64,000 nucleotides of DNA from Elusimicrobiota bacterium (GCA_023249645.1 JAHFCF010000002.1:64806-128805); one strand, 5' to 3'. Counted from the stretch's first letter, positions 25,495 through 42,561 are shown. Numbers and translations: made by a program. Notes: generated by a model from the letters alone, not told the origin.

Positions 25495-26544
25495 TCAATA
25501 CCTGAAACCCAGGCTCAGACGGTAGACTTCCCCGAGCGCCGCCATGGGTTCAAAGCCGAAGTCGAGGCTGAACTTCTTGTAGTTCACGCCGACACCGATG
25601 GTCAGTCCGGAGAGGATGCCCAGATCCGTGGCCGCCAGGGTCTTGTAGCCGAGGCGGTAGGCCATGGAGACTTGCGGCGCCACGGGCGATGTGAATTCAA
25701 AACCGATCTTGCCGTAGGGATTGCCGTAAGTGGGGACCGCGGCCTCCAACGCCGACAACAGCCGGCCCTGATCCAGATGCAGGTCGTAGGCGAGCCCCGC
25801 GTCCATCTCCGAAGGGAGATCCTCGAGGTCAGCGCCAAAGTTCTGCTTGGAACCCAGGTTGCGGAAAGCAAAGCTCATCCGCAATTCGTCCCAATCCAGA
25901 GGCCGATAAAGCGCGCCGCCGTCCAAAGCGACAGCCGCCGATGAGCGGTCGTAGATCGTCTCATTGATGACTTTGATGGCCAAGCCTGCCATGAGATGCC
26001 CGCTCCACGGCTCCAGCTCCCGCTCCAGGGGACGGTAGCTCTCGGCCAGCGCCCAGTTGTCCCTGAAATACTCGCGATCCGACTGGCGCGGATCCGGCCT
26101 GCCGAAATCATAGGCATAGGCCAGGGACACGGCCTCGCCGTGGGGGGAAAAAGTCCCGACTGATTGGTTGGTGTTGGTCACGGCCGTCAAGTCGTCCTGG
26201 GAGAACCGGGCCAACGACGCGGCCACGGTGCCATGCAAGAGGCTCACCGGCAAGGCATAGGCCGCGAAATCGTAGCGGAAGAAGCGCAGGAATTCCGAAT
26301 GATCGTAGATGAAGTCTTGAGTCCTCAGGGCGGCCAGCCCCGCGGGATTCCAATAGATGGCCTCTGCCCCCTCGGCCACCGGGCCGAAAGCCTCTCCCAT
26401 GCCCAAGGCCCGCGCTCCCGCGCCCAAGGTCAAGAACTGAGAGGCATTGCCGCCCGCATTTGAGGTGAAGGCAAAAACCCGGCCCGTCGCAGCCAGCCAC
26501 AAGGCTGCGGCGAAAAAAGTCCTCGTCATCATGGACTTCTTCAC
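25495..26544 (-). CDS. PorV/PorQ-family outer-membrane beta-barrel protein
   Basis: Signal peptide, FLTLGAGARALGMGEAF, AIYWNPAGLA, C-terminal YRLSLGFRY; GTGA overlap with upstream stop. Confidence 0.85.
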   Translation of the reverse strand: MKKSMMTRTFFAAALWLAATGRVFAFTSNAGGNASQFLTLGAGARALGMGEAFGPVAEGAEAIYWNPAGLAALRTQDFIYDHSEFLRFFRYDFAAYALPVSLLHGTVAASLARFSQDDLTAVTNTNQSVGTFSPHGEAVSLAYAYDFGRPDPRQSDREYFRDNWALAESYRPLERELEPWSGHLMAGLAIKVINETIYDRSSAAVALDGGALYRPLDWDELRMSFAFRNLGSKQNFGADLEDLPSEMDAGLAYDLHLDQGRLLSALEAAVPTYGNPYGKIGFEFTSPVAPQVSMAYRLGYKTLAATDLGILSGLTIGVGVNYKKFSLDFGFEPMAALGEVYRLSLGFRY

Positions 26545-29500
26545 CGGATCACCACCACGCGCCGGGTCAGGCGCTGGCCTCCTCCCTCGATGACGACCAG
26601 ATAGGTCCCGCTGGCCACCTTGCCGCCGTGATCGTTCGCGCCGGTCCAAGTCGCCACGCCCGTGGAGTCAGCCGCGCCCCTCCAGAGCAGCTCTCCCGTG
26701 ATCGTGTAAAGCTTGAGGCTCGCCGAAGCGGGGAGATTGGAGAACGTCAAGACACCGGCGTTGAAGCGGCCATCGGTCGATCCGATCTTCCATGGGATGG
26801 GGAAGATCTGAACGGAATCCAAGGCAGAGGCAGGGGTTACGAAAAACGGCGCGAAGGTGGAGAAGTGATTGGTCAAGGCGGTGAGGCGATGCAGGGTCGT
26901 GTCCACGGAAGTGGGAAGGAGCACCCATTGGGACGATTCGTCATCGTAACGCATGATCACCAGCGTCTTGGGATCCTTGCCCGCCGGCAGACTGGCCGGA
27001 TCATAGTCCATGGTGATGGTGGCATTGCCGTTGGGCTGCAGACCTCCGGCCGCGATGGTCAATCCGACGCTCGAACCGACGGACGTGATGATCCCTTCAT
27101 TGGAGACCGGGGGCGGCAGAAGATTCACGACGCTGGCATTGATGGTCACGGCCGTTCCGGTCGGCAACACTCCGGGCGGCGCCTGAAGGCCCACGGCCGT
27201 GAACGCCGCATAAGGCGGCGACAAACTCAAGGAGAGCGCCTGGCCGGCGAGCACCGTTGCTGAGGACAAGACCGCCGACCAGGTGACGCTTGAACCCATG
27301 GCCAGGACATTGGACGCGTTGTTCCAGTTGAGCGCGCCCACGCGCAGGTAATAGGTCGTTCCATAGGAGAGACCGGCCACGGCGGCGGAGGTGGCGGCGG
27401 AACCACTCGTGATGCTCGAGTAAAGCACGCCGCCGAAGTCCGACGATGTGGCGAGATCCACCTGATAGCCCTCACAACTCGCGCTTTGGGGAGACGACGG
27501 CAGGGCCACCCAATGCACGGTCATGCTGGCGTAGCTGACGGAGACGAACGGCGAGGACGCGGCGCTGGGCGGCACGGCCAAGGTCGCGCCGGCCCCCACA
27601 TCGGCCAACGAAGAGTCCGGATTGGGGGGGGAGAGGCTTAAGGACTGAACGCGCAGATAGTAAGTCGTGTTGGCGGCCAAACCTGAGAAATCCGCCCACG
27701 TGTTCGCGGTCGTGGAGCTCAGAACCCCGCTGGCAAAAGCCGCGTCCGGGGAGATCTTGGACAGAAAAAGGGTCGGCGCCGGGTTGCCGTTGGCCGACCA
27801 CGCCATGCGGATCGTGCTGACCGACACCGTGGAAACGACCGCGGAAAGGGCCGCGGCAGGCGCCGGAAGGGTGGCCGTGGCGAGCACGGCAGTGAAAGCC
27901 GTGTTGCCCCCGCTGAGATTCATAGCCGCCGCGCGCAGATAATAGCTGGTGTTGGACGCCAGACCTGTGAAGACAGCGGAGGTGTTGAGCGTGACTGAGG
28001 CCTGGAAAACGAAGCTGAAGGCTGGATCCGTCGAAACCTGCGCCAGATATTGCGTCCCCGAGGAATTGTTCCCGGCGGTGAAACTGCCCGTGAATCCCGA
28101 GGATCCCTGCCCGCTGAAGGGCTGGGCCAGCAGGCTCACCGGCAGGGCCAAGGTCGAAGTGGAGCCCACGGCCAGATAAGTCGCGCTCAGAGCTCCACCG
28201 TTGCCCACGGTCCAGACGCGGGCGTAATAGGCCTTGTTAGCGGCCAGCCCCGTGAACGACGCGGACACGCCCCGCGTGCGCGATGAGACAACGGAGGAAT
28301 AGCCGGAGTCGGACGAGATCTCGGCCTGGAAGAGCGAACCTGAAGGGTCGACTCCGACGGACCACTGGACCGACATGCTGGAAGTCCAGACGGCGGAGAA
28401 AGGCGCGGCGGCCAAGGACGGTGCCACGCCCAAAGTCGAGACCGTGCTCGTGCTTGCCGGCGAGCCCAAGATATAAGCACGGAAGTAATACGTGGTGTTG
28501 GGCAAAAGGCTTGTGAATGTGGAGGAGAAGATGTCATTGCCTGTCTGCAATGCCGTCAGGGGGGCGAAGCTGGACATGGTGGAACAGTCCGCCTCATAAG
28601 GCTGATTCGTGGGATTTCCATGGCGAGTCCAATTGAACACGACCGTCGATGAAGAGATGTTGGTGAAGGAGGCTTGTCCCGGCGCCGCGATCGCTTGAAG
28701 AGTCGCGGCCTTGCCCAGGGAGGCGAAATTCGCGCCCTGGGTCAGGTTCAGGGTGGCCAGACGGAGATAATAGGTGGTATTGGAGGAGAGGCCCGTGGCC
28801 ACGAACTGGGAAACAGTCCGGTCCGTCGTGGTGGAATGAAAGACGATCGAGGAAAAGCCCGCGTTGACCGAGACATCGAGGATGTAGCCTTCGCAGGAAG
28901 AGGCGGCGGGAGAGGCCGGGCAGGGATTGAAGTTCACGGTCAGGCTGGTCAAGGAAGGGGTGATGGTCGGCGTGCCGACGATGGGATTGGCCAAGGTGGA
29001 GGTGGTCACGGAAACCCCGCCGGGACCCTCGCCTCCGGCATTATCGCCTTTGACGGACAGGGCATAGGTATTGTTCGCGGACAATCCTGTGCGGGTATAA
29101 GCCGTTGCGGAGACATTGGCCAAGAAAGCTGTTTGAACGATGCCGTCATAGACGTTATAGGATGTGGCGTTGGGAACGCTGCTCCAAGTCCAGGTGATGG
29201 AGCTGGTCCCGAGAGTCGCTGCGGCGAATCCGGAGGGCGCGACGATGGGGATGTCGAAGGCGTTGATCAGCGCGGTTCCCTTAAATGAGCCCCACCCCGT
29301 GACATTGTCATAGCCCGCCCCAGCGCTATAGTGCCCGTTGCTGCCGCTGGTGACGTCGTTGAAGACGCTGGCATAGGAAGCGCCTTTGCCCAGACTGTAA
29401 AAGGTGGGATTGGCGAATCCCACAGTCGGAGATCCGCCGACGGCGAGCTGCTCATTGAGAAGGGCGGTCCAGGACGCCCAAAGGGGCGCCGCCGCGCTGG

Positions 29501-30965
29501 TCCCTCCATACAGGTACCAGGCTCCACCGACATAAATGCCATAACCCGTGTTGGGGTCTGAATCGAGCGCCACGTCAGGGACGTTGCGCATCGTGGCTGA
29601 GGTCCCGACGCCGCTTTGCCAGCTCGGACGCCCCCAGAAGGCGCTCACACCGCCTCCGGTGGCTTCACAGGTTCCCGGCGATACGCATGAGGTATCCCAA
29701 ACCGTCTCCGCGGGAGACGAGATCGTCCCTGAAAGTGTGGTCCCACCCACGCCCGTCACATAAGGCTGGGAAGCGGGGTCGCTGACGCTGAGCGTGGAGC
29801 GGTCAGCGTAGGAGCCATTATCTCCGGCGGCCGCATAAAATGTCTGCCCCTGGGCCGCCATCTGGGCGAAGATCACGCTCTCCGCCGTCAGCATGGCCTG
29901 GCCTATATCCGTCTCATCGAGTCCCCAGGAGGTGCTCACGACCTTGGCCGTATTCTCGGATGCTATTTGCGCGAGGATGTCATAGTTGTTCTGAACCGAA
30001 TTGGCAGACGTATAAGCCAAGATATGCGCAGCGCCGGGAGCCAAAGCCATGGCCAATTCGATATCCAAGGCCACCTCTCCCATATCCGGGTCCGTATCCG
30101 GCGTGCTCAAATCGCAGGACACACCGTTGCAGAAGTTCGACACTCCGTCCACGCTGACGAAGGTCACGGGCGTGCTCAAGCCATAGCGGCTCCGATAAGC
30201 CTGGATATCATTGAGGCTGTAGCCATCCAGCTCCACCAGGGCGATAGTCTGGCCGGAGCCGGTGAGCGCCGTGGAACCCAAGCCATAGATGGATTTGATG
30301 TCTGCCGGAGCCAAGGTGCCTCCGGGGCCGGTCCCCGTAAATTGCGGAAGAGCCTGTCCTGCGCCTGGGACCAAGGAGCCGGATCGGATGGGCGAGGGAT
30401 GGGCTCTGAGGCGGGAATGATAAATGCCGCGGGCGTTCGAAAGCCCGGCGACCGCGCCCAGGTGCTCGGCCAAGGCTGCGGGGATCGTCGGCTCGGCCTC
30501 ATGCGCGTGGAAAACCTGGCCGTCGACATGCCGATAGCGGTTCAACCGGACCTCAAAAGCTTTTTCGACCCGGCTCGCGGAGCCGTGGACTTTGATGACC
30601 AGGCTGTGCGGCTCATCCCCGTTGTCCACACTCAACCCGTGCGCCTGGGCGAAATCCTTCAGTCTCCGGCGCTTCTCCGCCAAGCCGCACTTCCGGGCGA
30701 ATTCCTCTGGACTCAGATAATGCCGGCCGGCCGCAGAGGTGGACTGATAGATCTGCGCCAGCGTCTGATCCAATAGCTTCTGGTCCAGACGCACCAGGAA
30801 ACTCAGCCGGATGTCTTCATCGGGGGAGACTCTGCCTAGCGGGGAAGAGCTTCTGATCTGCGGGGCGACATGCCCGTGCATAGCCACGCGCGTCTCGCCA
30901 GAGGCCGGCGATGCCAGCAGGAATCCAGACAGTAAAATGCCAAGAAAGGCTCTTGTTGTCCTCAT
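26541..30965 (-). CDS. Secreted S53 (sedolisin/kumamolisin) protease with pro-domain, seven FN3-like repeats and T9SS-CTD/FlgD-like tail
   Basis: YLSPEEF pro-domain; EVALDIE, AAAGDNG, GGTSAAAP, GYDNVTGWGS; seven L..NT.YY.R-type repeats; terminal IFPIPW...KLYTITGELL...W.G.N..GGKVASGTYLVVI...RVVVIR. Confidence 0.9.
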   Translation of the reverse strand: MRTTRAFLGILLSGFLLASPASGETRVAMHGHVAPQIRSSSPLGRVSPDEDIRLSFLVRLDQKLLDQTLAQIYQSTSAAGRHYLSPEEFARKCGLAEKRRRLKDFAQAHGLSVDNGDEPHSLVIKVHGSASRVEKAFEVRLNRYRHVDGQVFHAHEAEPTIPAALAEHLGAVAGLSNARGIYHSRLRAHPSPIRSGSLVPGAGQALPQFTGTGPGGTLAPADIKSIYGLGSTALTGSGQTIALVELDGYSLNDIQAYRSRYGLSTPVTFVSVDGVSNFCNGVSCDLSTPDTDPDMGEVALDIELAMALAPGAAHILAYTSANSVQNNYDILAQIASENTAKVVSTSWGLDETDIGQAMLTAESVIFAQMAAQGQTFYAAAGDNGSYADRSTLSVSDPASQPYVTGVGGTTLSGTISSPAETVWDTSCVSPGTCEATGGGVSAFWGRPSWQSGVGTSATMRNVPDVALDSDPNTGYGIYVGGAWYLYGGTSAAAPLWASWTALLNEQLAVGGSPTVGFANPTFYSLGKGASYASVFNDVTSGSNGHYSAGAGYDNVTGWGSFKGTALINAFDIPIVAPSGFAAATLGTSSITWTWSSVPNATSYNVYDGIVQTAFLANVSATAYTRTGLSANNTYALSVKGDNAGGEGPGGVSVTTSTLANPIVGTPTITPSLTSLTVNFNPCPASPAASSCEGYILDVSVNAGFSSIVFHSTTTDRTVSQFVATGLSSNTTYYLRLATLNLTQGANFASLGKAATLQAIAAPGQASFTNISSSTVVFNWTRHGNPTNQPYEADCSTMSSFAPLTALQTGNDIFSSTFTSLLPNTTYYFRAYILGSPASTSTVSTLGVAPSLAAAPFSAVWTSSMSVQWSVGVDPSGSLFQAEISSDSGYSSVVSSRTRGVSASFTGLAANKAYYARVWTVGNGGALSATYLAVGSTSTLALPVSLLAQPFSGQGSSGFTGSFTAGNNSSGTQYLAQVSTDPAFSFVFQASVTLNTSAVFTGLASNTSYYLRAAAMNLSGGNTAFTAVLATATLPAPAAALSAVVSTVSVSTIRMAWSANGNPAPTLFLSKISPDAAFASGVLSSTTANTWADFSGLAANTTYYLRVQSLSLSPPNPDSSLADVGAGATLAVPPSAASSPFVSVSYASMTVHWVALPSSPQSASCEGYQVDLATSSDFGGVLYSSITSGSAATSAAVAGLSYGTTYYLRVGALNWNNASNVLAMGSSVTWSAVLSSATVLAGQALSLSLSPPYAAFTAVGLQAPPGVLPTGTAVTINASVVNLLPPPVSNEGIITSVGSSVGLTIAAGGLQPNGNATITMDYDPASLPAGKDPKTLVIMRYDDESSQWVLLPTSVDTTLHRLTALTNHFSTFAPFFVTPASALDSVQIFPIPWKIGSTDGRFNAGVLTFSNLPASASLKLYTITGELLWRGAADSTGVATWTGANDHGGKVASGTYLVVIEGGGQRLTRRVVVIR

Positions 30966-31063
30966 GGAAGCAGTAGAAACTCTATATTAAGAAAGTTTAA
31001 GGCACAGAGAGGAGAAAGTCATGACGAAACTGTTAAAAAAATTGAGAATTACTAAGGGGCTTT

Positions 31064-31738
31064 TTAATCGACTTTGGAGCCCTCGGCCGCGATGAGGCCC
31101 AAGTCGATGCCCTTGACCACGGCCTCGGTGCGGTTGCTGACCCCGAGCTTCTGGAAGATACTGTTGAGATGGTTCTTGATCGTCTTGACGCTGGAGGCCA
31201 GGGTCTTGGCGATCTCCTTGTTGGACAATCCATGACCCAGGAAGGACATGATCTTGATCTCCGTCTTGGTCAAGGCCACGATCGAGGCCTCGGCCGAGGT
31301 CGTGCCCATCTGGCGCAGACCGTCGATGAGTTTGCTCATGACCGGCTGGGGGATCATCAGGCCCTGGTTGGCGAAGGTCTTCAAAGCATTGACCAGCTCG
31401 GAGGCGGGCAGCATCTTCGAGAGATAGCCGTTGGCCCCGGCCTGGATGGCCTCCATGACGTGCGCCTCGTCCTCGTAGGAGGAGAGGATGAGCACGTTGG
31501 TCTGCGGGCAATCGCGGTGGATCTGGCGAGTGGCCTCGATGCCGTCCATGTGGGGAAGCTTGATGTCGAGGAGGATGACGTTGGGCTTGAGCTTCTTGAC
31601 CAGCCGCAGAGCCTCGACGCCGTCCTTGGCCTCTCCCACGACCTCCAGGATCCTCTCGTTTTCCAGAAGGTCCTTGATGCCTTCCCGGAAAAGGGTCTGG
31701 TCGTCGGCGATCACTACGGAAATCTTCTTTTTGGCCAT
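31064..31738 (-). CDS. Orphan NarL/LuxR-family response regulator
   Basis: IADD, ILLDIKLPHMDG, GANGYLSK receiver; LTKTE...GLSNKEIA...KTIKNHLNSIFQKLGVSNRTEA HTH; no adjacent kinase. Confidence 0.95.
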   Translation of the reverse strand: MAKKKISVVIADDQTLFREGIKDLLENERILEVVGEAKDGVEALRLVKKLKPNVILLDIKLPHMDGIEATRQIHRDCPQTNVLILSSYEDEAHVMEAIQAGANGYLSKMLPASELVNALKTFANQGLMIPQPVMSKLIDGLRQMGTTSAEASIVALTKTEIKIMSFLGHGLSNKEIAKTLASSVKTIKNHLNSIFQKLGVSNRTEAVVKGIDLGLIAAEGSKVD

Positions 31739-31762
31739 CAGGAAACCTCCTCGGTTTTGGAG

Positions 31763-31775
31763 ATTATAGTATAAT
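31763..31775. promoter_or_regulatory. Back-to-back TATAAT -10 elements (regulator on -, tRNA-Met on +)
   Basis: ATTATAGTATAAT: TATAAT on - (31768-31763) and on + (31770-31775). Confidence 0.55.
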
Positions 31776-31783
31776 AAACACGC

Positions 31784-31856
31784 GGCGCGGTAGCTCAGGG
31801 GTTAGAGCGGGCGTTTCATAAGCGTCAGGTCGGAGGTTCGAGACCTCCCCGCGCCA
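31784..31856 (+). tRNA. tRNA with CAT anticodon, most likely elongator tRNA-Met
   Basis: GGCGCGG/CCGCGCC acceptor (1-72 paired), TTCATAA loop, GGAGG-TTCGAGA-CCTCC; lacks initiator GGG/CCC. Confidence 0.9.
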
Positions 31857-31919
31857 CGATTTGACACTCAGGTCCTTATTTCATTAGATAGTCGTCATCC
31901 CAGTTACCGAGGAGGGCTC

Positions 31920-32102
31920 ATGGCAGAAACTCTGGTGGTCGTCAGCAAGGTCAAGAAGGTCGTGAAGGAAGCCGGTTTCAGGACAGGCGGCGACTACATC
32001 GAAGCCCTTTCCGGGAAGATCACCGCCCTGGTCAGCGCCTCCATCGAGAAGGTCAAGGCTCAAGGCGGCAAGAAGACCCTCGGCGCCGAAGACCTGATCT
32101 AA
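31920..32102 (+). CDS. Bacterial histone-fold protein (Bd0055/HBb-like)
   Basis: 60 aa MAETLVVVSKVKKVVKEAGFRTGGDYIEALSGKITALVSASIEKVKAQGGKKTLGAEDLI; LVV.SKVK start and K-K-T-x4-D end typical of these histones; GAGGAGG RBS. Confidence 0.88.
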   Translation: MAETLVVVSKVKKVVKEAGFRTGGDYIEALSGKITALVSASIEKVKAQGGKKTLGAEDLI

Positions 32103-32148
32103 ACATCTCTCAAGAGACCCGAAGCCTTGCACCGGGCCTTGAAGGCCC

Positions 32149-32502
32149 ATGAGCGCCCTGGTCGTCGTCTTTCTCTTCGTCCTCGTCGGCATCGCCTTCG
32201 GCGTCGGCGCTCTGGTGGCGGCTTGGCTTTTACGGCCAAGTCTCCCCTATGAGCGCAAGCTCTCGACCTACGAGTGCGGCATCACTCCCGTAGGAACGCC
32301 TGAAGTCAAGCTCAACATCCGCTTCTACGTCTTCGCCCTGCTCTTCGTCATCTTCGACGTGGAGATCCTCTACGTGTATCCGTGGGCGGTCACGGCCCGA
32401 CAGATCGGACCCGCGGCCCTCGCGGAGATGGCGATCTTTTTGGCCATCCTCTTTTTAGGTCTGCTCTATGCCTGGCGCAAGGGAGCCCTGGTGTGGGAAT
32501 GA
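32149..32502 (+). CDS. nuoA: NADH-quinone oxidoreductase subunit A
   Basis: [32 protein letters not shown]. Confidence 0.95.
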
Positions 32503-33050
32503 TCCTGGACAAGTACCCGGCCGTGCTCCAGGCGGTTCCCGGCGGAAAGATCCTCCTCACCACCACGGACGATTTCATCAACCTGGGACGCAAATACTCG
32601 ATCTGGCCCCTCACCTTCGGCCTGGCCTGCTGCGCCATCGAGATGATGGCGGCCTATGCCTCCCGGTTCGATTTCGACCGCCTGGGCGTCATCCCCAGGC
32701 CCAGCCCCCGACAGGCCGATCTGATGATCATCGCGGGGACCTTCGTCAAGAAGATGGCCGCGCCCGTGCGCGAGATCTACCACCAGATGCCCGAGCCGCG
32801 CTTCGTCATCGCCATGGGCAGCTGCGCCAACTGCGGCGGGCCGTTCCACGACGCCTATTCCGTGGTCAAGGGCGTGGACAAGGTCATCCCCGTGGACGTC
32901 TACATCCCCGGCTGCCCGCCCCGGCCCGAGGCCCTCATCTACGGGGTCATGGAACTGCAGAAGAAGATCATGCGCATGAAGCTGGCCAAAGGCGGCGGCG
33001 CGACCCTGCAGGCTGAGAAAGGAAGCCGTGACCCGGCGGGCGGAGCGTGA
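32499..33050 (+). CDS. nuoB: NADH-quinone oxidoreductase subunit B
   Basis: [34 protein letters not shown]. Confidence 0.96.
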
Positions 33051-33051
33051 G

Positions 33052-33624
33052 ATGACCCGCGAAAAAGTCCTCTCGGACATCCTTGCCCAAGTCCCTGGCG
33101 CTTCGGCCGCCGCGGCGCCGGTCAAGGACTACCCCACGGTGCGCCTCTCCCAGCCGTCGGACCTCCCGACCGCGGCGCGATTGCTCAAGGACGAGCTGGG
33201 CTTCGATTATCTGGAGATGGTCACGGCCGTGGATTGGCTGGGGCCGACCAAGACGGAAGGCTTCCTCCCAGCCGTCACGCCCATCCCCTTTGCCGCCAAG
33301 GCGCCGGCGCTCCCCGTCACGCCGGCTGCCGGGCCTGACATCGCCTACCGTCCGGTCCTGGACCTGCTTTGGTCCTTTGGCAATCTCAAGACGCATCTCA
33401 AGGTCTTCCTGCGGCTGGAGGTCTCTCGAGAGAAGCCCGAGGTTCCCAGCCTCACGGGACTCTTCCCGGCCGCGGACTGGCAGGAACGCGAGACCTTCGA
33501 TCTCTTCGGCGTGCGCTTCAGCGGCCATCCCAATCTGACCAAGATCCTCACCCCGGATTTCCTCCAGGGCCATCCTCTGCTCAAGGACTATGTCCATCAA
33601 CCCGATGAATTCGACGCCGATTAG
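33052..33624 (+). CDS. nuoC: NADH-quinone oxidoreductase subunit C
   Basis: [36 protein letters not shown]. Confidence 0.93.
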
Positions 33625-34735
33625 ATCAGAGACGTCGGGATTGAAGACCGACACGCTCTTCCTCAACATGGGCCCGCAGCACCCATCCACCCACGGGGTC
33701 CTGCGCCTGGGGCTGACCATCTCCGGCGAGGTCATCGTCGAGGCCATGCCGGACATCGGCTATCTGCACCGCGGCGTGGAAAAACTCCTGGAGACCCGCA
33801 CCTACGCGCAGGGCGTGGTGCTGGCCGACCGCCTGGACTACTGCTCGGCCATGTCCAATGACCTGGCCTTCTGCCTAAGCGTCGAGAAACTTCTCGGCGC
33901 GCAGGTCCCAAAACGCGCCCAGGTCCTGCGGGTCATCATGGCCGAGCTCAACCGCATCGCCAGCCACCTCATCTTCTTCGGCACCTACGGCATCGACATC
34001 GGCGCCTTCACGCCTTTCCTCTACGCCTTCCGGGAGCGCGAGATGGTCCTGGACCTCTTCGAGATGTGCTGCGGGGCTCGGCTCACCTACAACTACATCC
34101 GACCGGGCGGCGTGGCCTCGGATATCAACGCCGACTGGATCGCCCGATGCCGCGAGTTCCTCGATTTCTTCAAGCCCCGCTTAGACGAATATGACACCCT
34201 GCTCTCTTTCAACCCCATCTTCCTCGTCCGCACCCAGACGGTTGGAATCATCACCCCGAAGACCGCCGTGGCGTGGGGGCTCTCCGGCCCCAACCTGCGC
34301 GCCTCGGGCGTGAACTACGACGTGCGCCAGGCCGAGCCCTACTGCGGCTACGAGCAGTATGACTTCACCGTGGCCCTGGGAAAGACCGGCTCCTGCTGGG
34401 ACCGCTATTTCTGCCGGGTGGTCGAGATGCGCCAGTCCGTCCGCATCGTCGAGCAGGCTCTGTCCCGGCTTGCCTCCGGCGAGATCATGGCCAAGCTGCC
34501 CAAGGTCCTGCGGCTGCCGGCCGGGGAAGCCTACTCCCATATCGAGGCCTCGCGGGGAGACCTGGGCGTTTACATCGTCTCGGACGGCGGACTGGCCCCC
34601 TACCGACTCCATTTCCGCGCGCCCTGCTTCATCAATCTGGCCATCCTGCAGGAGATCCTTGTCGGCAAGAAGGTGGCCGACGTCATCGCGGTCCTGGGCT
34701 CCCTCGACATCGTCCTGGGCGAGGTGGATCGATGA
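33605..34735 (+). CDS. nuoD: NADH-quinone oxidoreductase subunit D
   Basis: [40 protein letters not shown]; start uncertain (33590-33641). Confidence 0.96.
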
Positions 34736-35925
34736 TGCCGCGCTCCTGGCCCACGGAGGTCTGGAAGGATCCGTGGTCTCTGCCGCGCTACCGCGCAGGC
34801 GCCCTTTGGCTGGGAGGTATCCTTTTCGGCATCGTCCTCATCAGTGCTGTCGTGGGAGAACTCTGCGTCTGGGGGGAAAAACTCTTCGCGTTCCTCAGCC
34901 ATCTAGGATTGTCTGTCGTTGTTGTTGACTGGATATGGGTCCTGGTCAAGCTCGGCTGCGTCATAGGCCTCATCGTTGCCAACGGCCTCTGGGCCGTCTG
35001 GTGGGAGCGCAAGATCTCGGCCCACATGCAATCGCGCCTGGGGCCCATGTACGCGGGAGGCTTCCATGGCTGGGCCCAGACCATCCTCGACACCGTCAAA
35101 CTTCTATTAAAGGAAGACATCACGCCGGCCTCGGCCGACAAGGTCCTGCACGCCCTCGCACCCGTCGTGGCGATCGCGCCCTGCGTCATCGCCTTCGCCC
35201 CGGTGCTCTTCGGCAAGGAACTCGCCGCGGCCAAGCTTGACATCGGAGTCCTCTACATCTTCGCCTTCGCCGGGATCTCGGTCATCGGCATCGTCATGGC
35301 CGGCTGGGCTTCGGGGAACAAGTACTCCCTGCTGGGAGGGCTGCGCGCCGCGGCACAGATCGTCAGCTATGAACTGCCCCGCGGATTCTCGGTCGTGCCC
35401 ATCATCATGTTCGCCGGTTCCCTGGACCTCGCGGTCATCGACCAGGCGCAGGCCGGCTACTGGTTCGGATTCTTCCCGCGCTGGTTCATCTTCTACCCCG
35501 TCGCGGGCCAGCTCTCCTTCCTGTTCTTCCTCATCGCCTCCGTGGCCGAGACCAACCGCACGCCCTTCGACATCCCGGAGGCCGAATCCGAACTCGTGGC
35601 CGGCTTCCACACGGAGTTCTCCGGCATGAAATGGTCGCTCTTCTTTTTGACCGAGTACGGCTATGTGATGCTGGCGAGTTTCCTCTTGGCCGTCTTCTTC
35701 TTCGGCGGCGGCGCGGCACCCCTGCCCTTCCTGCGGTTCATCCCGAGCTGGATCTGGATGATGGGCAAGGCCATGCTCATGATGTTCGTCTTCTTGTGGT
35801 TCCGGTGGACCTTCCCGCGTCTGCGCGTGGACCAGCTCATGGAGTTCAACTGGAAGTTCCTTCTGCCGTGGTGCTTTGTCAACATCGCCGTGGCGGGACT
35901 CATCCTGGCCTGGGGGATGCGGTGA
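34732..35925 (+). CDS. nuoH: NADH-quinone oxidoreductase subunit H
   Basis: ERKISAHMQSRLGP, KLLLKED, SYELP, AETNRTPFDIPEAESELVAG, RWTFPRLRVDQLM. Confidence 0.95.
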   Translation: MMPRSWPTEVWKDPWSLPRYRAGALWLGGILFGIVLISAVVGELCVWGEKLFAFLSHLGLSVVVVDWIWVLVKLGCVIGLIVANGLWAVWWERKISAHMQSRLGPMYAGGFHGWAQTILDTVKLLLKEDITPASADKVLHALAPVVAIAPCVIAFAPVLFGKELAAAKLDIGVLYIFAFAGISVIGIVMAGWASGNKYSLLGGLRAAAQIVSYELPRGFSVVPIIMFAGSLDLAVIDQAQAGYWFGFFPRWFIFYPVAGQLSFLFFLIASVAETNRTPFDIPEAESELVAGFHTEFSGMKWSLFFLTEYGYVMLASFLLAVFFFGGGAAPLPFLRFIPSWIWMMGKAMLMMFVFLWFRWTFPRLRVDQLMEFNWKFLLPWCFVNIAVAGLILAWGMR

Positions 35926-36434
35926 TCGCTTATTTCAAGGAAGTCTTTTCAGGCGCCTGGGCTTTTCTTCAGGGGCTCGCCATCACGCTGCGCTACCTTT
36001 TCAAGCCTTCGATCACCGTTCCATACCCGACGGAAAAGCTGACTCCCTATGCCGCCTTCCGCGGCATCCTGCTCGTCGATCCCGCCAAGTGCATCGCCTG
36101 CGGGCTGTGCGCCAAGGCCTGCCCCTCCACCTGCATCTCTCTCGAAAGCCAGGTCCATCCGGAAACCAAGAAGAGGATCCCCAAGCCCGAGTGGTACGCC
36201 CTGGACCTGGGGCGCTGCAATTTCTGCGGCCTCTGCGAGGCCGCCTGCCCCACCAAGCCCAAGTCCGTCTGGCACTCCCTCGATTATGAGGCCGTCTTCT
36301 CCAATCGCGACGAGATGGTGCGCTGCTGGAAGCCGGGATTCCCGCTGGCAGGCCGCGTCTGGGATCCGAGGAAAAAAGATTTCAAGGATCCCAAGGGCCA
36401 GATATCCGTCAAAGAAATGAGGACACGACCATGA
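35922..36434 (+). CDS. nuoI: NADH-quinone oxidoreductase subunit I
   Basis: TVPYP, CIACGLCAKACP, RCNFCGLCEAACP; GTG start overlaps nuoH stop. Confidence 0.93.
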   Translation: MIAYFKEVFSGAWAFLQGLAITLRYLFKPSITVPYPTEKLTPYAAFRGILLVDPAKCIACGLCAKACPSTCISLESQVHPETKKRIPKPEWYALDLGRCNFCGLCEAACPTKPKSVWHSLDYEAVFSNRDEMVRCWKPGFPLAGRVWDPRKKDFKDPKGQISVKEMRTRP

Positions 36435-36679
36435 GGATAGTTGGCTACCGGAAGGAATCTCCCTTGTCCTTTTGCGCCTCTGGCCGGCTTCTCATGAAAG
36501 AAGCCCGGTTCAATGAAGAATTCCAAAAACTCCCCATGGGAAAACTGACAGGAGTCCGAAAAGGTGTCTATCATTTCAAGACCCATGCGGACATGAATCG
36601 CTTTGATGAGGATTGCTGGGCAGCCCGCATGGTTCAGGTCTGCACGCAACATAGGGAAAATGCAAAAAAGGGCGCATGA
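36431..36679 (+). CDS. Small hypothetical protein inserted in the nuo operon
   Basis: 82 aa, lower GC than flanks, ATGA-coupled to nuoI; KGVYHFKTH.D.NR motif. Confidence 0.65.
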   Translation: MRIVGYRKESPLSFCASGRLLMKEARFNEEFQKLPMGKLTGVRKGVYHFKTHADMNRFDEDCWAARMVQVCTQHRENAKKGA

Positions 36680-36750
36680 TAAAAAATTATGGATTTGTAC
36701 CGTATGCTGAGCACCCAATGAAACGGTCGCATCCCCGAGCAATCTTCGCA

Positions 36751-36823
36751 GCAACTGTGGGCGCCCACAGTTGCACTTATTCAGCAAAGGTGTCCAGCCC
36801 AAGCAACTGTGTCCGGACACAGT
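36751..36823. repeat. Two related perfect palindromes
   Basis: GCAACTGTGGGCGCCCACAGTTGC (36751-36774) and ACTGTGTCCGGACACAGT (36806-36823); both carry GCAACTGTG at the 5' end. Confidence 0.85.
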
Positions 36824-36836
36824 CAAAGGATAAAGC

Positions 36837-37331
36837 ATGATTGAAGCCATCGCTTTTTATACTTTTGCCGCCGTGACGTTAATCGGCGCGTTTGGCGTGG
36901 TCACGCTGCGCAATACGATCTACTCAGCCCTATGCCTGGGATTGTGTCTGGCCGGCGTGGCCGGCATCTTCGCCAACCTGGGCGCGGATTTCCTTTTCGC
37001 CAGCCAGCTCCTCATCTACGTCGGCGGCATCGCGATCCTCATCGTGTTCGCCGTCATGCTCTTGGGACGCACCTCGGACCTCCACTTGAAGCAGGTCAAC
37101 GAACAATGGGCCGCGGCGTTCCTCATCGGCGCCGTCACTTGGGTCGGACTCTGGAGAGCCGCCAAGATATTCTCCCACACGCCGCTGCCCATCCCTGAGG
37201 CCGCCAAGACGACCCGCGCCATCGGGCTCTTGATGATGGGAGACCTGGCCGTGCCCTTCGAGGCCATCTCCCTCGTCCTCTTGGCGGCACTCCTGGGCGC
37301 CGTGTTCTTCTCGCGCAAGGAGAACCCATGA
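36837..37331 (+). CDS. nuoJ: NADH-quinone oxidoreductase subunit J
   Basis: QLLIYVGGIAILIVFAVML, PFEAISLVLLAALLGAV. Confidence 0.93.
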   Translation: MIEAIAFYTFAAVTLIGAFGVVTLRNTIYSALCLGLCLAGVAGIFANLGADFLFASQLLIYVGGIAILIVFAVMLLGRTSDLHLKQVNEQWAAAFLIGAVTWVGLWRAAKIFSHTPLPIPEAAKTTRAIGLLMMGDLAVPFEAISLVLLAALLGAVFFSRKENP

Positions 37332-37633
37332 CCCTGACCCACCATCTCCTCTTGGGCGCGGCGCTCTTTCTCATCGGCGTGTTCGGGGCCTTGACCCGAC
37401 GCAACATCATCGGCATCCTCATGTCCATCGAGCTCATGTTCAACGCCGCCAACATCAACCTGGCCGCCTTCAACCACTTCCTCCATCCCGAAGGCGTCCT
37501 GGGGATGACCACGGCGCTCTTCATCATCACCGTGGCCGCGGCCGAGGTCGTGGTCGGGCTGGCCCTGGTTCTGGCCATCTATCGCAATTGCGAATCGGTC
37601 TATGCGGAGGACTTCAACCTGCTGAAGGGATGA
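37328..37633 (+). CDS. nuoK: NADH-quinone oxidoreductase subunit K
   Basis: RRNII.ILMSIELMFNAANIN, AAAEVVVGLA. Confidence 0.95.
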   Translation: MTLTHHLLLGAALFLIGVFGALTRRNIIGILMSIELMFNAANINLAAFNHFLHPEGVLGMTTALFIITVAAAEVVVGLALVLAIYRNCESVYAEDFNLLKG

Positions 37634-39597
37634 CCATGCTCGAACACGCCTATCTCATTGCCCTCATCCCGCTGGCCGCCTCCTTCCTCATCCTTTTTGG
37701 CGGCAAAGAGGACCCGCACTCGCCACTGCCCTTCGTCGGCATCGCCGCGATCGGCTGGTGCCTCGTGGAATCCTTGGGCATATTGTACGCGGCCATCTCA
37801 GGCGCAGCTTTGCCCTATGCGCAGGACTGGTCCTGGTTCTCCTTCGGCATGACCGCGGCCAACCGCCCCTTCGTCTATGACATGCCCATCGGGGTCCTCA
37901 TCGACGGACCAGCCGTCTTCATGCTGGTCGTCGTGACCCTGGTCAGCTTCCTGGTCCAGATCTACTCCCTTTCCTACATGCATGGCGACGCGCGCTTCAA
38001 ACGCTACTACGCCTATCTGTCCTTCTTCACCGCGTCCATGCTGGGCCTGGTGGTGTCCAGCAACCTCCTGGTCACCTTCTGCTGCTGGGAGCTGGTGGGA
38101 TTCTCTTCCTACATCCTCATCGGCTTCTGGTTCGAAAGATCCGAACCCGCCTATGCCGCCAAGAAGGCCTTCCTCACCACCAAACTGGGCGACCTGGGGC
38201 TCTACCTCGCGCTGCTGTTCATCTTCGTCCTCGTGGGAAGCTTCCAGATCCCGCAGATCGCGCAGTTCGTCTCGCGCGGCTACATGTCAACGGCCGCCGC
38301 GACCCTCATCGCTCTGGGGATACTCTGCGGCGCGGCTGGAAAATCCGCGCAGGCGCCTCTCTTCATCTGGCTGCCCGACGCCATGGAAGGCCCCACCCCG
38401 GTCTCGGCCCTCATCCATGCCGCCACCATGGTCGCGGCCGGCGTCTATCTCGTGGCCCGGTGCTACTTCATCTTCACGGCCGCACCCATCGCGATGGAGA
38501 CCGTGGCCTGGCTGGGAGCCCTCACGGCGTTCTTGGCGGCGACCATGGCCATCGTCTGCACCGACATCAAAAGGGTGCTGGCCTTCTCGACCGTCTCCCA
38601 GCTGGGGTTCATGATGTGCGCCCTGGGCGCCTGGGGCCTGACGGCAGGACTCTTCCACCTGACCACGCACGCCGCCTTCAAGGCGCTGCTCTTCCTCTGC
38701 GCCGGCTCGGTCATCCACGCCGTGCATACCAATGACATGCGCCAGATGGGGGGACTCTCCAAGAAGATGCCCCTCACGTTTTTGACCACCTTCATCGGGA
38801 CCTGCGCCATCTCGGGCATCCCGCTCTTGTCCGGCTGGTACTCCAAGGACATGATCTTGGAAAGGGTCTACGAACACGACCCCCGCCTCTTCATCATCCT
38901 CGCCATCACGGCGACCTTGACCGCGTTCTACATGTTCCGCCTCCTCTTCTTGACCTTCCTGGGCACGGAGCGCGACAAGGACAAGCACGCCCATGCCCAC
39001 GAGTCGCCCTGGCCCATGACCGTGCCGCTCGTGGTCCTGGCGCTGCTCTCCATCTTCGCCGGAGCTCTGCTGGACCACCATCATCTCTTCGAATCCCTGG
39101 TGACGGGCCCGGTCTCTCCGGAGATCCCGCATCCGGCCCCGCCCTGGCTGGGGTGGTCGGTCACCGCCGCGGTCGCCGCGTCCATCGTCGCGGCCGCCAA
39201 GCTCTATGGCGGGCCCCACTTCGAGACAGCCCAGCGGCTCAAGGCCGCCTGGGCGCCTCTCTTCCATCTTCTGGACCGGCGCTACTACCTCGATGACATC
39301 TTCCTGGGCCTGGTGGATCTCGGCGACCGCGCCGCCCGACTCGCCTTCTGGATCGATTCCGAGGTCATCGACGCCATCTTCGTGGATGGCTGGGGCGCCG
39401 TGGCACGCCTGGCGGCCAAGCTCAGCCATCTCTTCGACGATCTCTGCATCGATCGGACGGTGGACGGCACCGGCGGCTTGAGCGTCACCGTCGGCGGAGC
39501 GCTGAGGAGCCTGGTCGCCCGGGGCCTGGCGCAGGAATATCTGATGTACGCCGCCGTGGGCATGAGCGTCTTGGCGGCCCTGACGTGGTTCAGGTAA
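37630..39597 (+). CDS. nuoL: NADH-quinone oxidoreductase subunit L
   Basis: WELVG, GKSAQAPLFIWLPDAMEGPTPVSALIHAATMV, STVSQLG, HAAFKALLFL. Confidence 0.96.
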   Translation: MTMLEHAYLIALIPLAASFLILFGGKEDPHSPLPFVGIAAIGWCLVESLGILYAAISGAALPYAQDWSWFSFGMTAANRPFVYDMPIGVLIDGPAVFMLVVVTLVSFLVQIYSLSYMHGDARFKRYYAYLSFFTASMLGLVVSSNLLVTFCCWELVGFSSYILIGFWFERSEPAYAAKKAFLTTKLGDLGLYLALLFIFVLVGSFQIPQIAQFVSRGYMSTAAATLIALGILCGAAGKSAQAPLFIWLPDAMEGPTPVSALIHAATMVAAGVYLVARCYFIFTAAPIAMETVAWLGALTAFLAATMAIVCTDIKRVLAFSTVSQLGFMMCALGAWGLTAGLFHLTTHAAFKALLFLCAGSVIHAVHTNDMRQMGGLSKKMPLTFLTTFIGTCAISGIPLLSGWYSKDMILERVYEHDPRLFIILAITATLTAFYMFRLLFLTFLGTERDKDKHAHAHESPWPMTVPLVVLALLSIFAGALLDHHHLFESLVTGPVSPEIPHPAPPWLGWSVTAAVAASIVAAAKLYGGPHFETAQRLKAAWAPLFHLLDRRYYLDDIFLGLVDLGDRAARLAFWIDSEVIDAIFVDGWGAVARLAAKLSHLFDDLCIDRTVDGTGGLSVTVGGALRSLVARGLAQEYLMYAAVGMSVLAALTWFR

Positions 39598-39607
39598 GGA
39601 GAATGTC

Positions 39608-41068
39608 ATGAACATCTTGAGTCTCATCACCTTTCTTCCGGCAGCCGGGGCCCTGGTCATCCTGGCCCTGCCCAAGGAGCGCGAGCGCGCCATCCAGGCG
39701 GCCGCGCTCATCTCTTCGGGACTCTCCCTGATCCTCTGCGGCGCGCTCTATGTCCTTTTCAACCGCGGCACCTCGGACATGCAGTTCGTCGAGCGCATCC
39801 CCTGGATCCCGTCCTTGGGCGCGCAGTACTTCTTAGGCGTGGACGGACTCTCGGTGCCCCTGGTGATCCTGACGGCCCTCATGTCCTTCGTCTCTTTGAT
39901 CGCATCTCTCAACATCAAGGTCCGCATCAAGGAGTACTTCTTCTGGTTCTTGATCCTGGAAACAGGCATGAGCGGGGTCTTCGCCGCCCTGGACATGGTC
40001 CTCTTCTATGTCTTCTGGGAGATCACCCTGGTCCCCATGTACTTCCTCATCGGGATCTGGGGGGGACCGAAGAAGGAGTACGCGGCCATCAAGTTCTTCC
40101 TCTACACCCTGACCGGCTCGGTCTTCATGCTCCTGGGCATACTGGCCGTGTACTTCAACACGACTCCGCACACCTTCGACCTGCTCACGCTGCTGCAGTC
40201 GCATGCCCAATGGAGCAGCCGCTTCCAGATCCTCGTGTTCATCGCCTTCTACCTCGGCTTCGCGGTCAAGGTGCCGGCGTTCCCGTTCCACACCTGGCTT
40301 CCCCTGGCCCATGTGGAGGCGCCCACGGCCGTGAGCGTGGTCCTGGCCGCTGTCCTGCTGAAGATGGGAGTCTACGGCATCATGCGCATCTCCTACGGCA
40401 TGCTGCCCTTGGGTTTTTCGTGGTTCCTGCCGATCCTGATCGCCATCGCGGTCATCAACATCATCTATGGCGCTCTCTGCGCCATGGCCCAGACGGACAT
40501 GAAGAAGATGGTGGCCTACTCCTCGATCAACCACATGGGCTACTGCCTTTTGGGCATCGCCGGGCTGACGGCCACGGGGTTCGCGGGCGCCAGCTTCGAG
40601 ATGATCAACCACGGGATCATCACCGGAGCCCTGTTCCTTCTGGTCGGCGTCATCTATGACCGGGCGCACACGCGCGACATCTCGGCCTTCGGCGGCTTGG
40701 CGGCTAAGCTGCCGGTCTACGCGGGCCTCATGTCCTTGGCCTGCTTCGCCTCTCTGGGCCTGCCCGGCCTGGCCGGCTTCATCAGCGAGTTCCTATGCTT
40801 CTTGGGCGCGTTCGCCCGCTGGAAGGTCTGCACGGCCGTCTCGGTCATCGGCATCCTCGTCACCGCCGCTTTCTTCCTGCGCATGCTCGAGAAAGTCTTC
40901 CTGGGACCGTTCAATGAGAAATGGTCGGCGCTCACCGACCTCGATGCCCGAGAGCTCTGCGCCATCGTGCCGCTCGCCGCGCTCACGATCGTCTTGGGCG
41001 TCTATCCCAGGCCGGCGCTGGACCTCATGAACACCACCCTCGTGCACATGGCGGGCCTCTTCAAATAA
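39608..41068 (+). CDS. nuoM: NADH-quinone oxidoreductase subunit M
   Basis: FYVFWE, AVKVPAFPFHTWLPLAHVEAP, LLKMG, AYSSINHMG, LGLPGLAGFISE. Confidence 0.96.
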   Translation: MNILSLITFLPAAGALVILALPKERERAIQAAALISSGLSLILCGALYVLFNRGTSDMQFVERIPWIPSLGAQYFLGVDGLSVPLVILTALMSFVSLIASLNIKVRIKEYFFWFLILETGMSGVFAALDMVLFYVFWEITLVPMYFLIGIWGGPKKEYAAIKFFLYTLTGSVFMLLGILAVYFNTTPHTFDLLTLLQSHAQWSSRFQILVFIAFYLGFAVKVPAFPFHTWLPLAHVEAPTAVSVVLAAVLLKMGVYGIMRISYGMLPLGFSWFLPILIAIAVINIIYGALCAMAQTDMKKMVAYSSINHMGYCLLGIAGLTATGFAGASFEMINHGIITGALFLLVGVIYDRAHTRDISAFGGLAAKLPVYAGLMSLACFASLGLPGLAGFISEFLCFLGAFARWKVCTAVSVIGILVTAAFFLRMLEKVFLGPFNEKWSALTDLDARELCAIVPLAALTIVLGVYPRPALDLMNTTLVHMAGLFK

Positions 41069-41070
41069 TC

Positions 41071-42561
41071 ATGTTCAACCTCCAGCTCCTCGCCCCCGAG
41101 ATCGTCTTGAGCGTTCTGGCCCTGGCCCTCATGGCCATCGATCTCATCCTGCCAACGAGGCGCTCCCAACTGCCGTACCATCTGGGGTGGATATCGGCCC
41201 TCGTGGCTCTGGCCTGCGTCGTCGCGACACTGGCCACCAGCAGCCAGGGAGCCGGCCCGCTCTGGATCGTGGATCCGTTCAGCCAGCTCTTCAAGGCCAT
41301 GACGCTTTTGGCCGTGATCGTGACCTTCCTGCTCTGCCTGGAATACGAGGACCTCTCGCTCTCCCAGTCAGGGACCTTCGCGGCACTCCTGCTCCTCTCG
41401 GCGGTAGGCCTCATGCTCTTGGTCTCCGCCACGGACCTTCTCTTCCTCTTCGTGTCCCTGGAGCTCGTGGCCGTCTCTTCCTTCATCCTGGCAGGGTTCG
41501 AGAGGCGCAACCGCAAGTCCAACGAAGGCGCCATCAAGTACTTCCTCTTCGGCGCCTTCTCCTCGGCCATCTTCGTCTACGGCCTCTCTCTCTACTACGG
41601 CGCGGCCGGCACGACCAAGCTCTTGATCCTCTCGCAGAACGGCTCGAGCCTGAGCCTCTGGACTCCGGTGCTGACGGGCCTGGGCCGGCAGGGCCCGGTC
41701 CTGCTCTTAGCCATGCTCTTCCTGCTTCTGGGCTTCGGCTTCAAGGCGGCGATGGTGCCCATGCACTTCTGGGTGCCCGATGTCTACGAGGGCGCGCCCA
41801 TGCCGGTGACGACCTTTCTCTCGGTCGCTCCCAAGATCGCGATCATGGGAGTCCTCTTGCGGGTCTTCACGCTCCTGGTGCCGGCCTCGGGCCTGGGCCT
41901 GACCGGGCTTCTGGCCCTCTTGGCCATCCTCACCATGACCGTGGGCAACACCATCGCCATCTTCCAGGACAACGTCAAGCGCCTCTTGGCCTACTCCTCC
42001 ATCGCCCAGGCCGGCTATATCCTGATCGGCATCGTGACCGCCAACTCCCTCGGCTTGGAGGGCGTGCTCCTCTACAGCGCTGTCTACATCGCCATGAACG
42101 TCGGCGCATTCACCGTGCTGCAGGCTGTGGGCAAGAACGGCTCCTACGAGCTTTCGGCCTTCGACGGCCTCTCGCGCCGATCCATGGCACTCGCTCTGAC
42201 CATGGCCGTATTCCTGCTCTCCTTGGCCGGCATCCCTCCGTTGGCTGGGTTCATCGGGAAGTTCTATCTCTTCGCCGCGGCCATGGAGGCCGGCCGCGCA
42301 GCAGCCTCCTCATCCTCGAAAAACATCTTCTACGCCTTGGCCGTGGTCGGCGTCATCAACAGCGTCATCTCGGTCTACTACTACATGAAGATCGTCTACC
42401 ACATGTTCTTCTTACCGCCGCACGAGAGGTCCTCGGCGCCGGCCATCGGTCCCTATCTGCTAGCCGTCCTGGCCGTGTGCCTGGCCGGAGTCCTCGCCTT
42501 CGGCGTCTGGCCGGAGCCTCTCATCGCCCAGATGAGGATCTCCGCCGTGCACCTGCCGTAG
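41071..42561 (+). CDS. nuoN: NADH-quinone oxidoreductase subunit N
   Basis: EGAIKYF, FKAAMVPMHFWVPDVYEGAP, KRLLAYSSIAQAGY, SLAGIPPLAGFIGK. Confidence 0.96.
   Translation: MFNLQLLAPEIVLSVLALALMAIDLILPTRRSQLPYHLGWISALVALACVVATLATSSQGAGPLWIVDPFSQLFKAMTLLAVIVTFLLCLEYEDLSLSQSGTFAALLLLSAVGLMLLVSATDLLFLFVSLELVAVSSFILAGFERRNRKSNEGAIKYFLFGAFSSAIFVYGLSLYYGAAGTTKLLILSQNGSSLSLWTPVLTGLGRQGPVLLLAMLFLLLGFGFKAAMVPMHFWVPDVYEGAPMPVTTFLSVAPKIAIMGVLLRVFTLLVPASGLGLTGLLALLAILTMTVGNTIAIFQDNVKRLLAYSSIAQAGYILIGIVTANSLGLEGVLLYSAVYIAMNVGAFTVLQAVGKNGSYELSAFDGLSRRSMALALTMAVFLLSLAGIPPLAGFIGKFYLFAAAMEAGRAAASSSSKNIFYALAVVGVINSVISVYYYMKIVYHMFFLPPHERSSAPAIGPYLLAVLAVCLAGVLAFGVWPEPLIAQMRISAVHLP

Follow-up and report, generated by a model that had tools for sequence, protein, structure and literature searches.

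The histone gene and its flanking features

The gene considered here lies between a tRNA-Met gene and a string of respiratory genes in a metagenome-assembled genome (MAG) of an Elusimicrobiota bacterium (2.27 Mb, 38 contigs, 93% complete). The window, meaning the whole stretch of DNA that was analyzed, is 64 kb long. An open reading frame at 31920..32102 (+) with an ATG start encodes a 60-amino-acid protein, MAETLVVVSKVKKVVKEAGFRTGGDYIEALSGKITALVSASIEKVKAQGGKKTLGAEDLI, with a pI of 9.4 and ten K+R against seven D+E residues. It is flanked by tRNA-Met(CAT) 62 nt upstream and by nuoA 46 nt downstream, and is the only histone copy in the genome, which also carries one HU gene. At E ≤ 1e-3, a search over 5.8 billion proteins returned 756 homologs, of which the best 120 were nearly all 59-60 amino acids long and 72-90% identical, and were annotated just as hypothetical protein in Elusimicrobia/Elusimicrobiota MAGs. 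Relative to 74 gapless orthologs, codon positions 1, 2 and 3 took 936, 567 and 2190 nucleotide differences, respectively, a pattern expected where purifying selection acts on the protein read in this frame. Judged by the homologs and the codon comparison, the ORF at 31920-32102 is a real gene and no chance ORF. The stretch from the tRNA through the histone gene to nuoA, with the histone-nuoA junction, was bridged without difference by per-run contigs from two DNA runs, although both runs belong to one study that may include the source sample, so that this support is not independent.

The upstream tRNA gene (31784..31857, +) was called by ARAGORN and matched Rfam RF00005 with 63.1 bits; nothing except this tRNA scored above threshold when Rfam was searched over 31000-33000. 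Inspection by eye showed a G1:C72 pair and the lack of three consecutive G:C pairs in the anticodon stem, which indicates that the tRNA(CAT) is not an initiator. It would by the same inspection be an elongator-type tRNA-Met, and could alternatively be a lysidine-modified tRNA-Ile2. A tRNA-Met gene on the same strand was found upstream of the histone in 41 of the 70 related loci with at least 400 nt of upstream sequence, and within 300 nt in 31.

The short interval between the tRNA and the histone gene contains signals for expression. A -35-like hexamer, TTGACA, is present at 31861-31866 (+), followed after 17-18 nt by an AT-rich -10-like element, TTAGATA (31884..31890, +), and by a Shine-Dalgarno sequence, GAGGAGG (31909..31915, +), whose GGAGG ends 4 nt before the ATG. 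In eight aligned upstream regions (alignment A2) both TTTGAC (31860-31865) and GGAGG were invariant (8/8), and by eye TTGAC followed by A, G or T recurred in about ten further tRNA-histone spacers. The -10-like element read TTAGATA or TTATATA in six of the eight aligned sequences, this locus included, four of the six being same-genus genomes; the corresponding position in loci L002 and L004 reads TATATT/TATAGT. The stretches upstream of 70 full-length orthologs were mostly of a purine-rich GGAG type with a few weaker ones, as viewed by eye and uncounted. A generic sigma-70 scan of 31600-32600 listed no promoter, because TTAGATA fails its -10 rule (A2/T6), and the promoter call made here rests on conservation. 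The tRNA-histone spacer is also low in GC, 46.8% vs 62.7% for the window. The conserved -35- and -10-like elements and the low GC of the spacer make it very likely that the histone gene is served by a sigma-70-like promoter of its own, conserved and located 3 nt past the tRNA. Eleven loci have a tRNA-histone spacer of no more than 29-52 nt; the promoter there must overlap the tRNA gene, or else the tRNA and the histone are co-transcribed.

Two further features touch this region. One subgroup of relatives (loci L008, L010, L013, L015-L018, L022, L050 and L066) carries, right after tRNA-Met, a conserved long hairpin of the CCGGACATTGATC...GATCAATGTCCGG type with a T-rich tail; it is absent at this locus, and has the look of a terminator belonging to the tRNA and lying upstream of the histone promoter. 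On the other side of the tRNA, and divergent from it with 45 nt between, lies a gene for a LuxR-type response regulator (PF00072 + PF00196; 31064-31738, -). With a gap of this size the regulator's promoter must overlap the tRNA/histone region. A regulator of this type, 74-87% identical, lies beside the tRNA-histone pair in many relatives. Further along on the same strand as the regulator is an ORF of 1474 amino acids (26541-30965, -) with a PF09286 pro-kumamolisin activation domain followed by repeated fibronectin type III domains, which is probably a large secreted protease of the sedolisin type.

Downstream, nuoA (32149..32502, +; PF00507, E 2.1e-35) begins an 11-gene complex I-type operon, nuoA-B-C-D-H-I-J-K-L-M-N, which extends over 32149..42561 (+) and was assigned from Pfam matches for each gene. 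The first two genes overlap by ATGA at 32499-32502. No nuoE, nuoF or nuoG is present between nuoD and nuoH. Genes of the NuoF type were found on other contigs, and a lower-scoring second nuoA with a NuoF-type gene nearby (C20:91932-95631) suggests that the organism has two complex I-type systems. The spacer between the histone gene and nuoA (32103-32148, +) is 46 nt long and contains no terminator-like site, either by the scan tool, which found none in 31600-32600, or by a re-implementation of its rule; the scan of 31600-32600 also listed no promoter-like site between the two genes. The spacer folds no better than its shuffles (z -0.48). By eye, a 5-bp GC hairpin (GGGCC/GGCCC) can be drawn over the likely ribosome-binding site of nuoA. 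The preliminary description of this DNA had read the region as a basic protein of 60 amino acids with a strong ribosome-binding site and TTGACA at 31861, placed between tRNA-Met and the complex I operon and separated from nuoA by 46 nt with no U-tailed terminator, and on all of these points it was borne out, both of the upstream motifs proving to be conserved.

Family, predicted fold and DNA-contact residues

Scans of the histone protein against Pfam-A and NCBIfam returned 0 families at E ≤ 10, which shows that curated profiles miss the Elusimicrobiota histone clade. Identification therefore rests on PDB, profile and fold searches. A phmmer search of PDB sequences gave 8fvx_A (E 1.9e-7) and 8cmp_A (2.2e-7), both spanning residues 1-60, followed by HLp (9qt0, 1.1e-6) and HTkC (9f2c, 3.7e-4). 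A profile built from 44 sequences matched HBb at 6e-21, HTkC at 1.8e-18, HLp at 6.5e-17 and HMfA/B at 2.5e-4. The AlphaFold2 model (mean pLDDT 88.8) consists of alpha1 (residues 8-17), L1 (18-23), an alpha2 of 25 residues (24-48), L2 (49-55) and an alpha3 of three residues (56-58), with K51, T53 and D58 forming the clamp motif. It is thus predicted as a histone fold with a shortened alpha2 and a truncated alpha3, as in the bacterial dimer histones, whose alpha3 is of 3-4 residues. The top Foldseek match was HBb chain 9ezz_B (TM 0.90, rmsd 1.5 A, 46% identity), and HBb chains overall gave TM 0.89-0.90, rmsd 0.9-1.5 A and identities of 44-46%. Lower matches were HLp and HTkC, each with TM 0.83, and nucleosomal, NF-Y and TAF folds at 0.5-0.68. 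HBb was accordingly the best match by phmmer, by profile and by Foldseek.

The protein shares with HBb/Bd0055 (PDB 8fvx, 8fw7, 8cmp, 9ezz, 9f0e) its length, the N-terminal signature MAE.LVV.SKVKK, the short alpha2, the one-turn alpha3, K52-T53 in L2, D58 and, as a prediction, the handshake homodimer. It differs from HBb in having an L1 one residue shorter and an L2 one residue longer, and its gene heads a string of nuo genes. The lysines of alpha1 and the S9-K10 pair are kept: S9 and K10 are at least 90% conserved in alignment A1, and K12, K13 and K16 are present (the conserved alpha1 lysines are K11, K13 and K17 in the numbering of Schwab, PMC11390915). Archaeal HMfA/HMfB (1a7w, 1b67, 5t5k) also share the histone fold and an (R/K)-K-T-x4-D motif in L2/alpha3, but their alpha3 is full-length, their alpha2 is longer, and they assemble into tetramers and hypernucleosomes. 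Assignment to this nucleosomal (HMf/HTk) type was considered and rejected, as alpha3 has three residues and not about 10, the protein ends at residue 60, and the TM is only 0.52-0.56.

The class to which the protein would belong is established in the literature. In Schwab 2024 (PMC11390915) the class of 'bacterial dimer' histones, with a truncated alpha3, was defined from sequences that cluster with HBb, and was described as predominating in phyla including Elusimicrobiota; Hocher 2023 (PMC10627809) described histones as phylogenetically persistent in Elusimicrobia. Since Elusimicrobiota bacterial dimer histones are already catalogued, the protein adds no new category. We consider it to be a bacterial dimer histone with a truncated alpha3 and, in Elusimicrobiota, the orthologue of HBb/Bd0055, and hold this reading, along with the mechanism and transcription proposed below, at a probability of roughly 0.85.

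A two-copy model of the protein scored an ipSAE of 0.48 in each of three runs, with 0.01 as the best of 3 controls. For calibration, 20 of 30 one-chain pairs of known structure reached the ipSAE mark, compared with 1 of 23 proteins whose known structure is a single chain; these counts are only rough, because our own alignment was used. The dimer runs agreed in at least 96% of contacts, and the partner pLDDT was 78. In the model, L1 residues 21-23 contact L2 residues 53-55 and residue 34 of alpha2 contacts residue 34 of the other chain, which is the handshake pattern. Like complexes have been solved (8fvx, 8cmp), and the dimer result may therefore reflect memory of that likeness. A handshake homodimer is in this sense predicted, the model being a likeness and no proof of binding.

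Residues with which HBb contacts DNA were taken from PMC11317129 and mapped through the PDB sequence-search alignment. The Elusimicrobiota protein is identical to HBb at 6 of the 10 contact residues ranked by MD in that source (S9, K10, K12, K16, K52 and T53). The two top-ranked contacts are both changed, N22 of HBb to R21 and R57 to E57, the latter a charge reversal; the other contact changes are T8 to V and S24 to G. With these four substitutions the geometry of DNA contact may differ from that of HBb. At the clamp, R51 of HBb corresponds to K51 and the auxiliary D49 to Q48. Of the RKTxxxD/RxTxxxxD motif, which is a conserved trait of bacterial dimer histones without being what defines them, T53 and D58 are present and the arginine is replaced by K51. 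The KKT-x4-D form was found in 118 of 120 close homologs, and a clamp lysine in 72 of 80 related loci. When the clamp residue, position 57 and the clamp aspartate were scored together in these 80 loci, 71 were K/E/D, three R/E/D, one K/S/D and one truncated; the HBb-like combination R/R/D was seen in only four, namely three Anoxychlamydiales-labelled MAGs and one uncultured bacterium. An arginine precedes the L1 threonine in 71 of the 80. By these counts K51, R21 and E57 are clade-wide Elusimicrobiota states and not peculiar to this gene. The HBb contact residues are stated to be conserved in Elusimicrobiota (PMC11317129, NAR), a statement that fails for N22 and R57 in the present sequences, and no paper reporting the R21/E57/K51 state was found in full-text literature searches.

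In the dimer model R21 touches T53 and L54 of the partner chain. It seems that a positive charge has moved from alpha3 (R57 in HBb) to L1 (R21) within the same DNA-binding site. The placement of R21 beside T53 of the partner is reminiscent of the archaeal pair of sprocket arginine and threonine described by Hocher (PMC10627809), and is offered as an analogy.

The preliminary description had likened the protein to the Bdellovibrio histone Bd0055/HBb, had noted a K-K-T-LGAE-D clamp and a minimal third helix, and had named comparison with histone-fold structures and AlphaFold dimer models as ways to check this. The likeness held up in the PDB, profile and fold searches, and the HBb sequence given there agrees with the 8fvx chain. 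The clamp is present as K51-K52-T53-LGAE-D58, and the minimal third helix is a clade-wide trait; both proposed checks were run, with the results given above.

Gene order across the phylum and transcription of the histone gene

The protein itself is ordinary; less expected is the conserved position of its gene at the head of complex I genes. Eighty related loci were compared, of which 75 had a histone tblastn match and 66 of those had at least 1600 nt of downstream sequence. In 54 of the 66, nuoA follows downstream on the same strand. A PF02636 methyltransferase gene lies between the histone gene and nuoA in 28 of these 54; in another 19 the gap is 671-829 nt, and the one checked, L041, holds a UbiE-family gene there; in two the gap is about 1.0 kb with MidA not detected; and in five nuoA is within 30-145 nt, as at this locus. 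A sample of 301 genomes of the phylum contained 86 with the histone, from 55 of 98 genera. Counting nuoA at 83 bits or more, with lower-scoring matches dropped, the histone and nuoA were on the same strand within 1.4 kb in 42 of the 46 genomes having both, and directly adjacent only in G000, G092 and G276. The histone was present without this nuoA in 40 of the 301 genomes, including four from the family of the present genome, and the reverse was seen in 19. Functional co-dependence of the histone and complex I was rejected, because each gene occurs alone in many genomes. Full-text literature searches found no paper on linkage of histone and nuo genes, and the main text of Schwab 2024 has no mention of NADH, synteny, gene neighbourhood or tRNA.

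In most relatives the position of the spacer is thus occupied by a methyltransferase gene, of PF02636 (MidA/NDUFAF7-type) or UbiE-type; examples are found at 2699-3703 in L004 and at 2733-3386 in L041, the latter of UbiE family PF01209. In the present genome, 93% complete, PF02636 was not found anywhere by protein query or family model. The intervening gene appears to have been lost at this locus, leaving 46 nt. The same-genus genome G276 (L086) is also without it but keeps a 3' remnant of about 45 nt. A search for a deletion scar found only nine identical nt common to the spacer and the 3' terminus of the L084 methyltransferase gene; about 0.16 such matches would be expected by chance on our own estimate, and the L083 match falls elsewhere. 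A remnant in this spacer is accordingly unconvincing. The feature specific to this locus is the apparent loss of the methyltransferase gene, which puts the histone gene 46 nt from nuoA.

Whether transcription passes from the histone gene into nuo was judged from the distribution of terminator-like and promoter-like sites. A terminator-like site was found within 160 nt after the histone stop in 6 of 59 loci with nuoA following vs 6 of 16 in which nuoA was unseen (Fisher p 0.016, for kin that are not independent and with short downstream sequence in 4 of the 16). This rarity of terminators favours read-through, as does the finding of no promoter-like site ahead of nuoA; on sequence evidence we consider read-through somewhat better than an even prospect. 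Co-transcription with nuo is possible, with indirect support from these two observations and from synteny. A search for RNA sequencing runs that contain this stretch returned none. It conflicts with the single-gene-operon pattern that Schwab 2024 (PMC11390915) described for alpha3 histones.

That pattern belongs to the main competing account, to which we would give a substantial chance, though a little short of even: the histone gene would be transcribed alone, its transcript ending in the 46-nt spacer at a U-less hairpin or through Rho, with nuoA having its own start and the adjacency being inherited. In PMC11390915 the genes of nucleoid-associated proteins, and those of alpha3 histones, are assigned to operons of a single gene. 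A small abundant protein is required in amounts far from those of a membrane complex of 11 subunits. Strong GC hairpins are present in the histone-downstream spacers of some relatives (L086, L087), and the 5-bp GC hairpin lies just ahead of the nuoA start here. In GC-rich bacteria, termination can occur at hairpins that lack a U-tract. Against transcription of the histone gene alone stand the absence of any terminator-like or promoter-like site listed in 31600-32600, the folding of the spacer like its shuffles, the higher frequency of terminator-like sites where nuoA does not follow, and locus L004, where the histone stop is only 15 nt from the next gene.

Read-through into nuo can be put in a stronger form, in which the histone is the promoter-proximal cistron of the 11-subunit complex I operon, one conserved post-tRNA promoter drives the principal chromatin protein together with the respiratory chain, and R21 of L1 replaces R57 of HBb in DNA contact. 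In this full combination the proposal is doubtful. If true, a promoter shared by the histone and nuo would contradict the published single-gene-operon view of alpha3 histones, and the place of the gene at the head of complex I genes would be an exception to that pattern. The RdgC and IHF histones described in Schwab 2024 likewise keep a conserved place at the start of a string of several genes; they belong to other categories and have DNA-related partner genes, whereas the downstream genes here are respiratory.

Proposed mechanism and oligomeric state

Under the preferred reading of an HBb-type bacterial dimer histone, two chains would associate as a handshake homodimer with antiparallel alpha2 helices and each L1 paired to the L2 of the partner chain, and a K51-D58 salt bridge would stand in place of the usual R-D clamp. 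The dimer may bind the DNA backbone without sequence preference, through the first turn of alpha1 (S9, K10, K12, K16) and the paired L1/L2 loops (R21 and T22 with K52 and T53), the positive charge held by alpha3 R57 in HBb sitting on R21 of L1 across the Elusimicrobiota clade. From the likeness to HBb we infer an abundant nucleoid protein that would bend or coat DNA beside the single HU; no published work on DNA binding, abundance or RNA was found in the literature for any Elusimicrobiota histone. Transcription would start at the gene's own sigma-70-like promoter right after tRNA-Met and, with no terminator in the way, probably continue into the 11-gene nuo operon, the MidA/NDUFAF7- or UbiE-type gene that most relatives hold in between having apparently been lost here.

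The closest structural comparison after HBb is with the face-to-face (FtF) histones HLp of Leptospira perolatii (9qt0-9qt2) and HTkC of Thermococcus kodakarensis (9f2c), which have the same truncated fold, 33-34% identity and, in common with the present protein, the SK motif at the start of alpha1 and the clamp T and D. A functional FtF histone would form tetramers that wrap DNA and not single dimers that bend it. The scores do not lie far apart: 32.0 bits for HLp against 34.4 for HBb with the single sequence, 64.7 (HLp) and 69.7 (HTkC) against 77.6 with the profile, and TM 0.83 against 0.90, but HBb is the best match in every comparison. The tetramer-interface residues of HLp, R49, N53 and R55 (PMC12701072), correspond to the chemically similar K44, Q48 and K51, yet none of the three is identical, and the interface is in that respect not conserved. 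Position 48 is mostly D or E in the clade, like D49 of HBb, as judged from the commonest C-terminal tails without a tally. Schwab 2024 (PMC11390915) moreover puts Elusimicrobiota sequences under the bacterial dimers, for which that source reports no confident AlphaFold multimer above the dimer and no FtF residues R48/N52. An FtF tetramer is on this evidence improbable.

More improbable still is that the protein is not a general nucleoid protein but a factor that serves the neighbouring respiratory genes alone, as a local nuo regulator or a histone-fold partner in complex I biogenesis, a role that would account for its place at the operon's head: in its favour are a nuoA linkage kept across deep divergence (54/66 loci, 42/46 genomes), an intervening gene of a complex I assembly methyltransferase family (PF02636) or of UbiE type (PF01209, L041 only) and the rarity of terminator-like sites, but the genes are not co-dependent (40 vs 19 of 301 genomes), the closest solved relative, HBb, binds DNA non-specifically (PMC11317129), and an identity of about 75-90% in hundreds of homologs of 59-60 amino acids together with the retained backbone contacts of HBb are consistent with a DNA binder sensitive to dosage.

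Work on bacterial histones is recent, with HBb and HLp as the two members characterised. Read as HBb-type dimers, the Elusimicrobiota proteins offer a natural set of variants, with a lysine clamp and R21/E57 in place of N22/R57, for asking which contacts drive bending. The distribution of the gene within the phylum is a further point of use. The histone was found in none of 88 and none of 89 genomes of two heavily sampled small-genome families and in 2 of 22 of a third (the f4, f14, f5 set), whereas nearly all other families have it; the genomes of the histone-free families are of 1.2-2.3 Mb and most are at least 96% complete. Such families, beside near-universal presence elsewhere, would make a clean system for learning what replaces a lost histone.

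Additional histone forms were observed. Some genomes hold a second, more divergent histone copy (E 1e-12 to 1e-19), which this genome does not. The more distant relatives (P0123, P0129, P0131 and P0127 among them) include doublets of 118-134 amino acids with two matched stretches, and also proteins of 150 and 279 amino acids with a C-terminal histone domain. These doublet and long forms are probable members of the pseudodimer and ZZ-type categories known from the literature.
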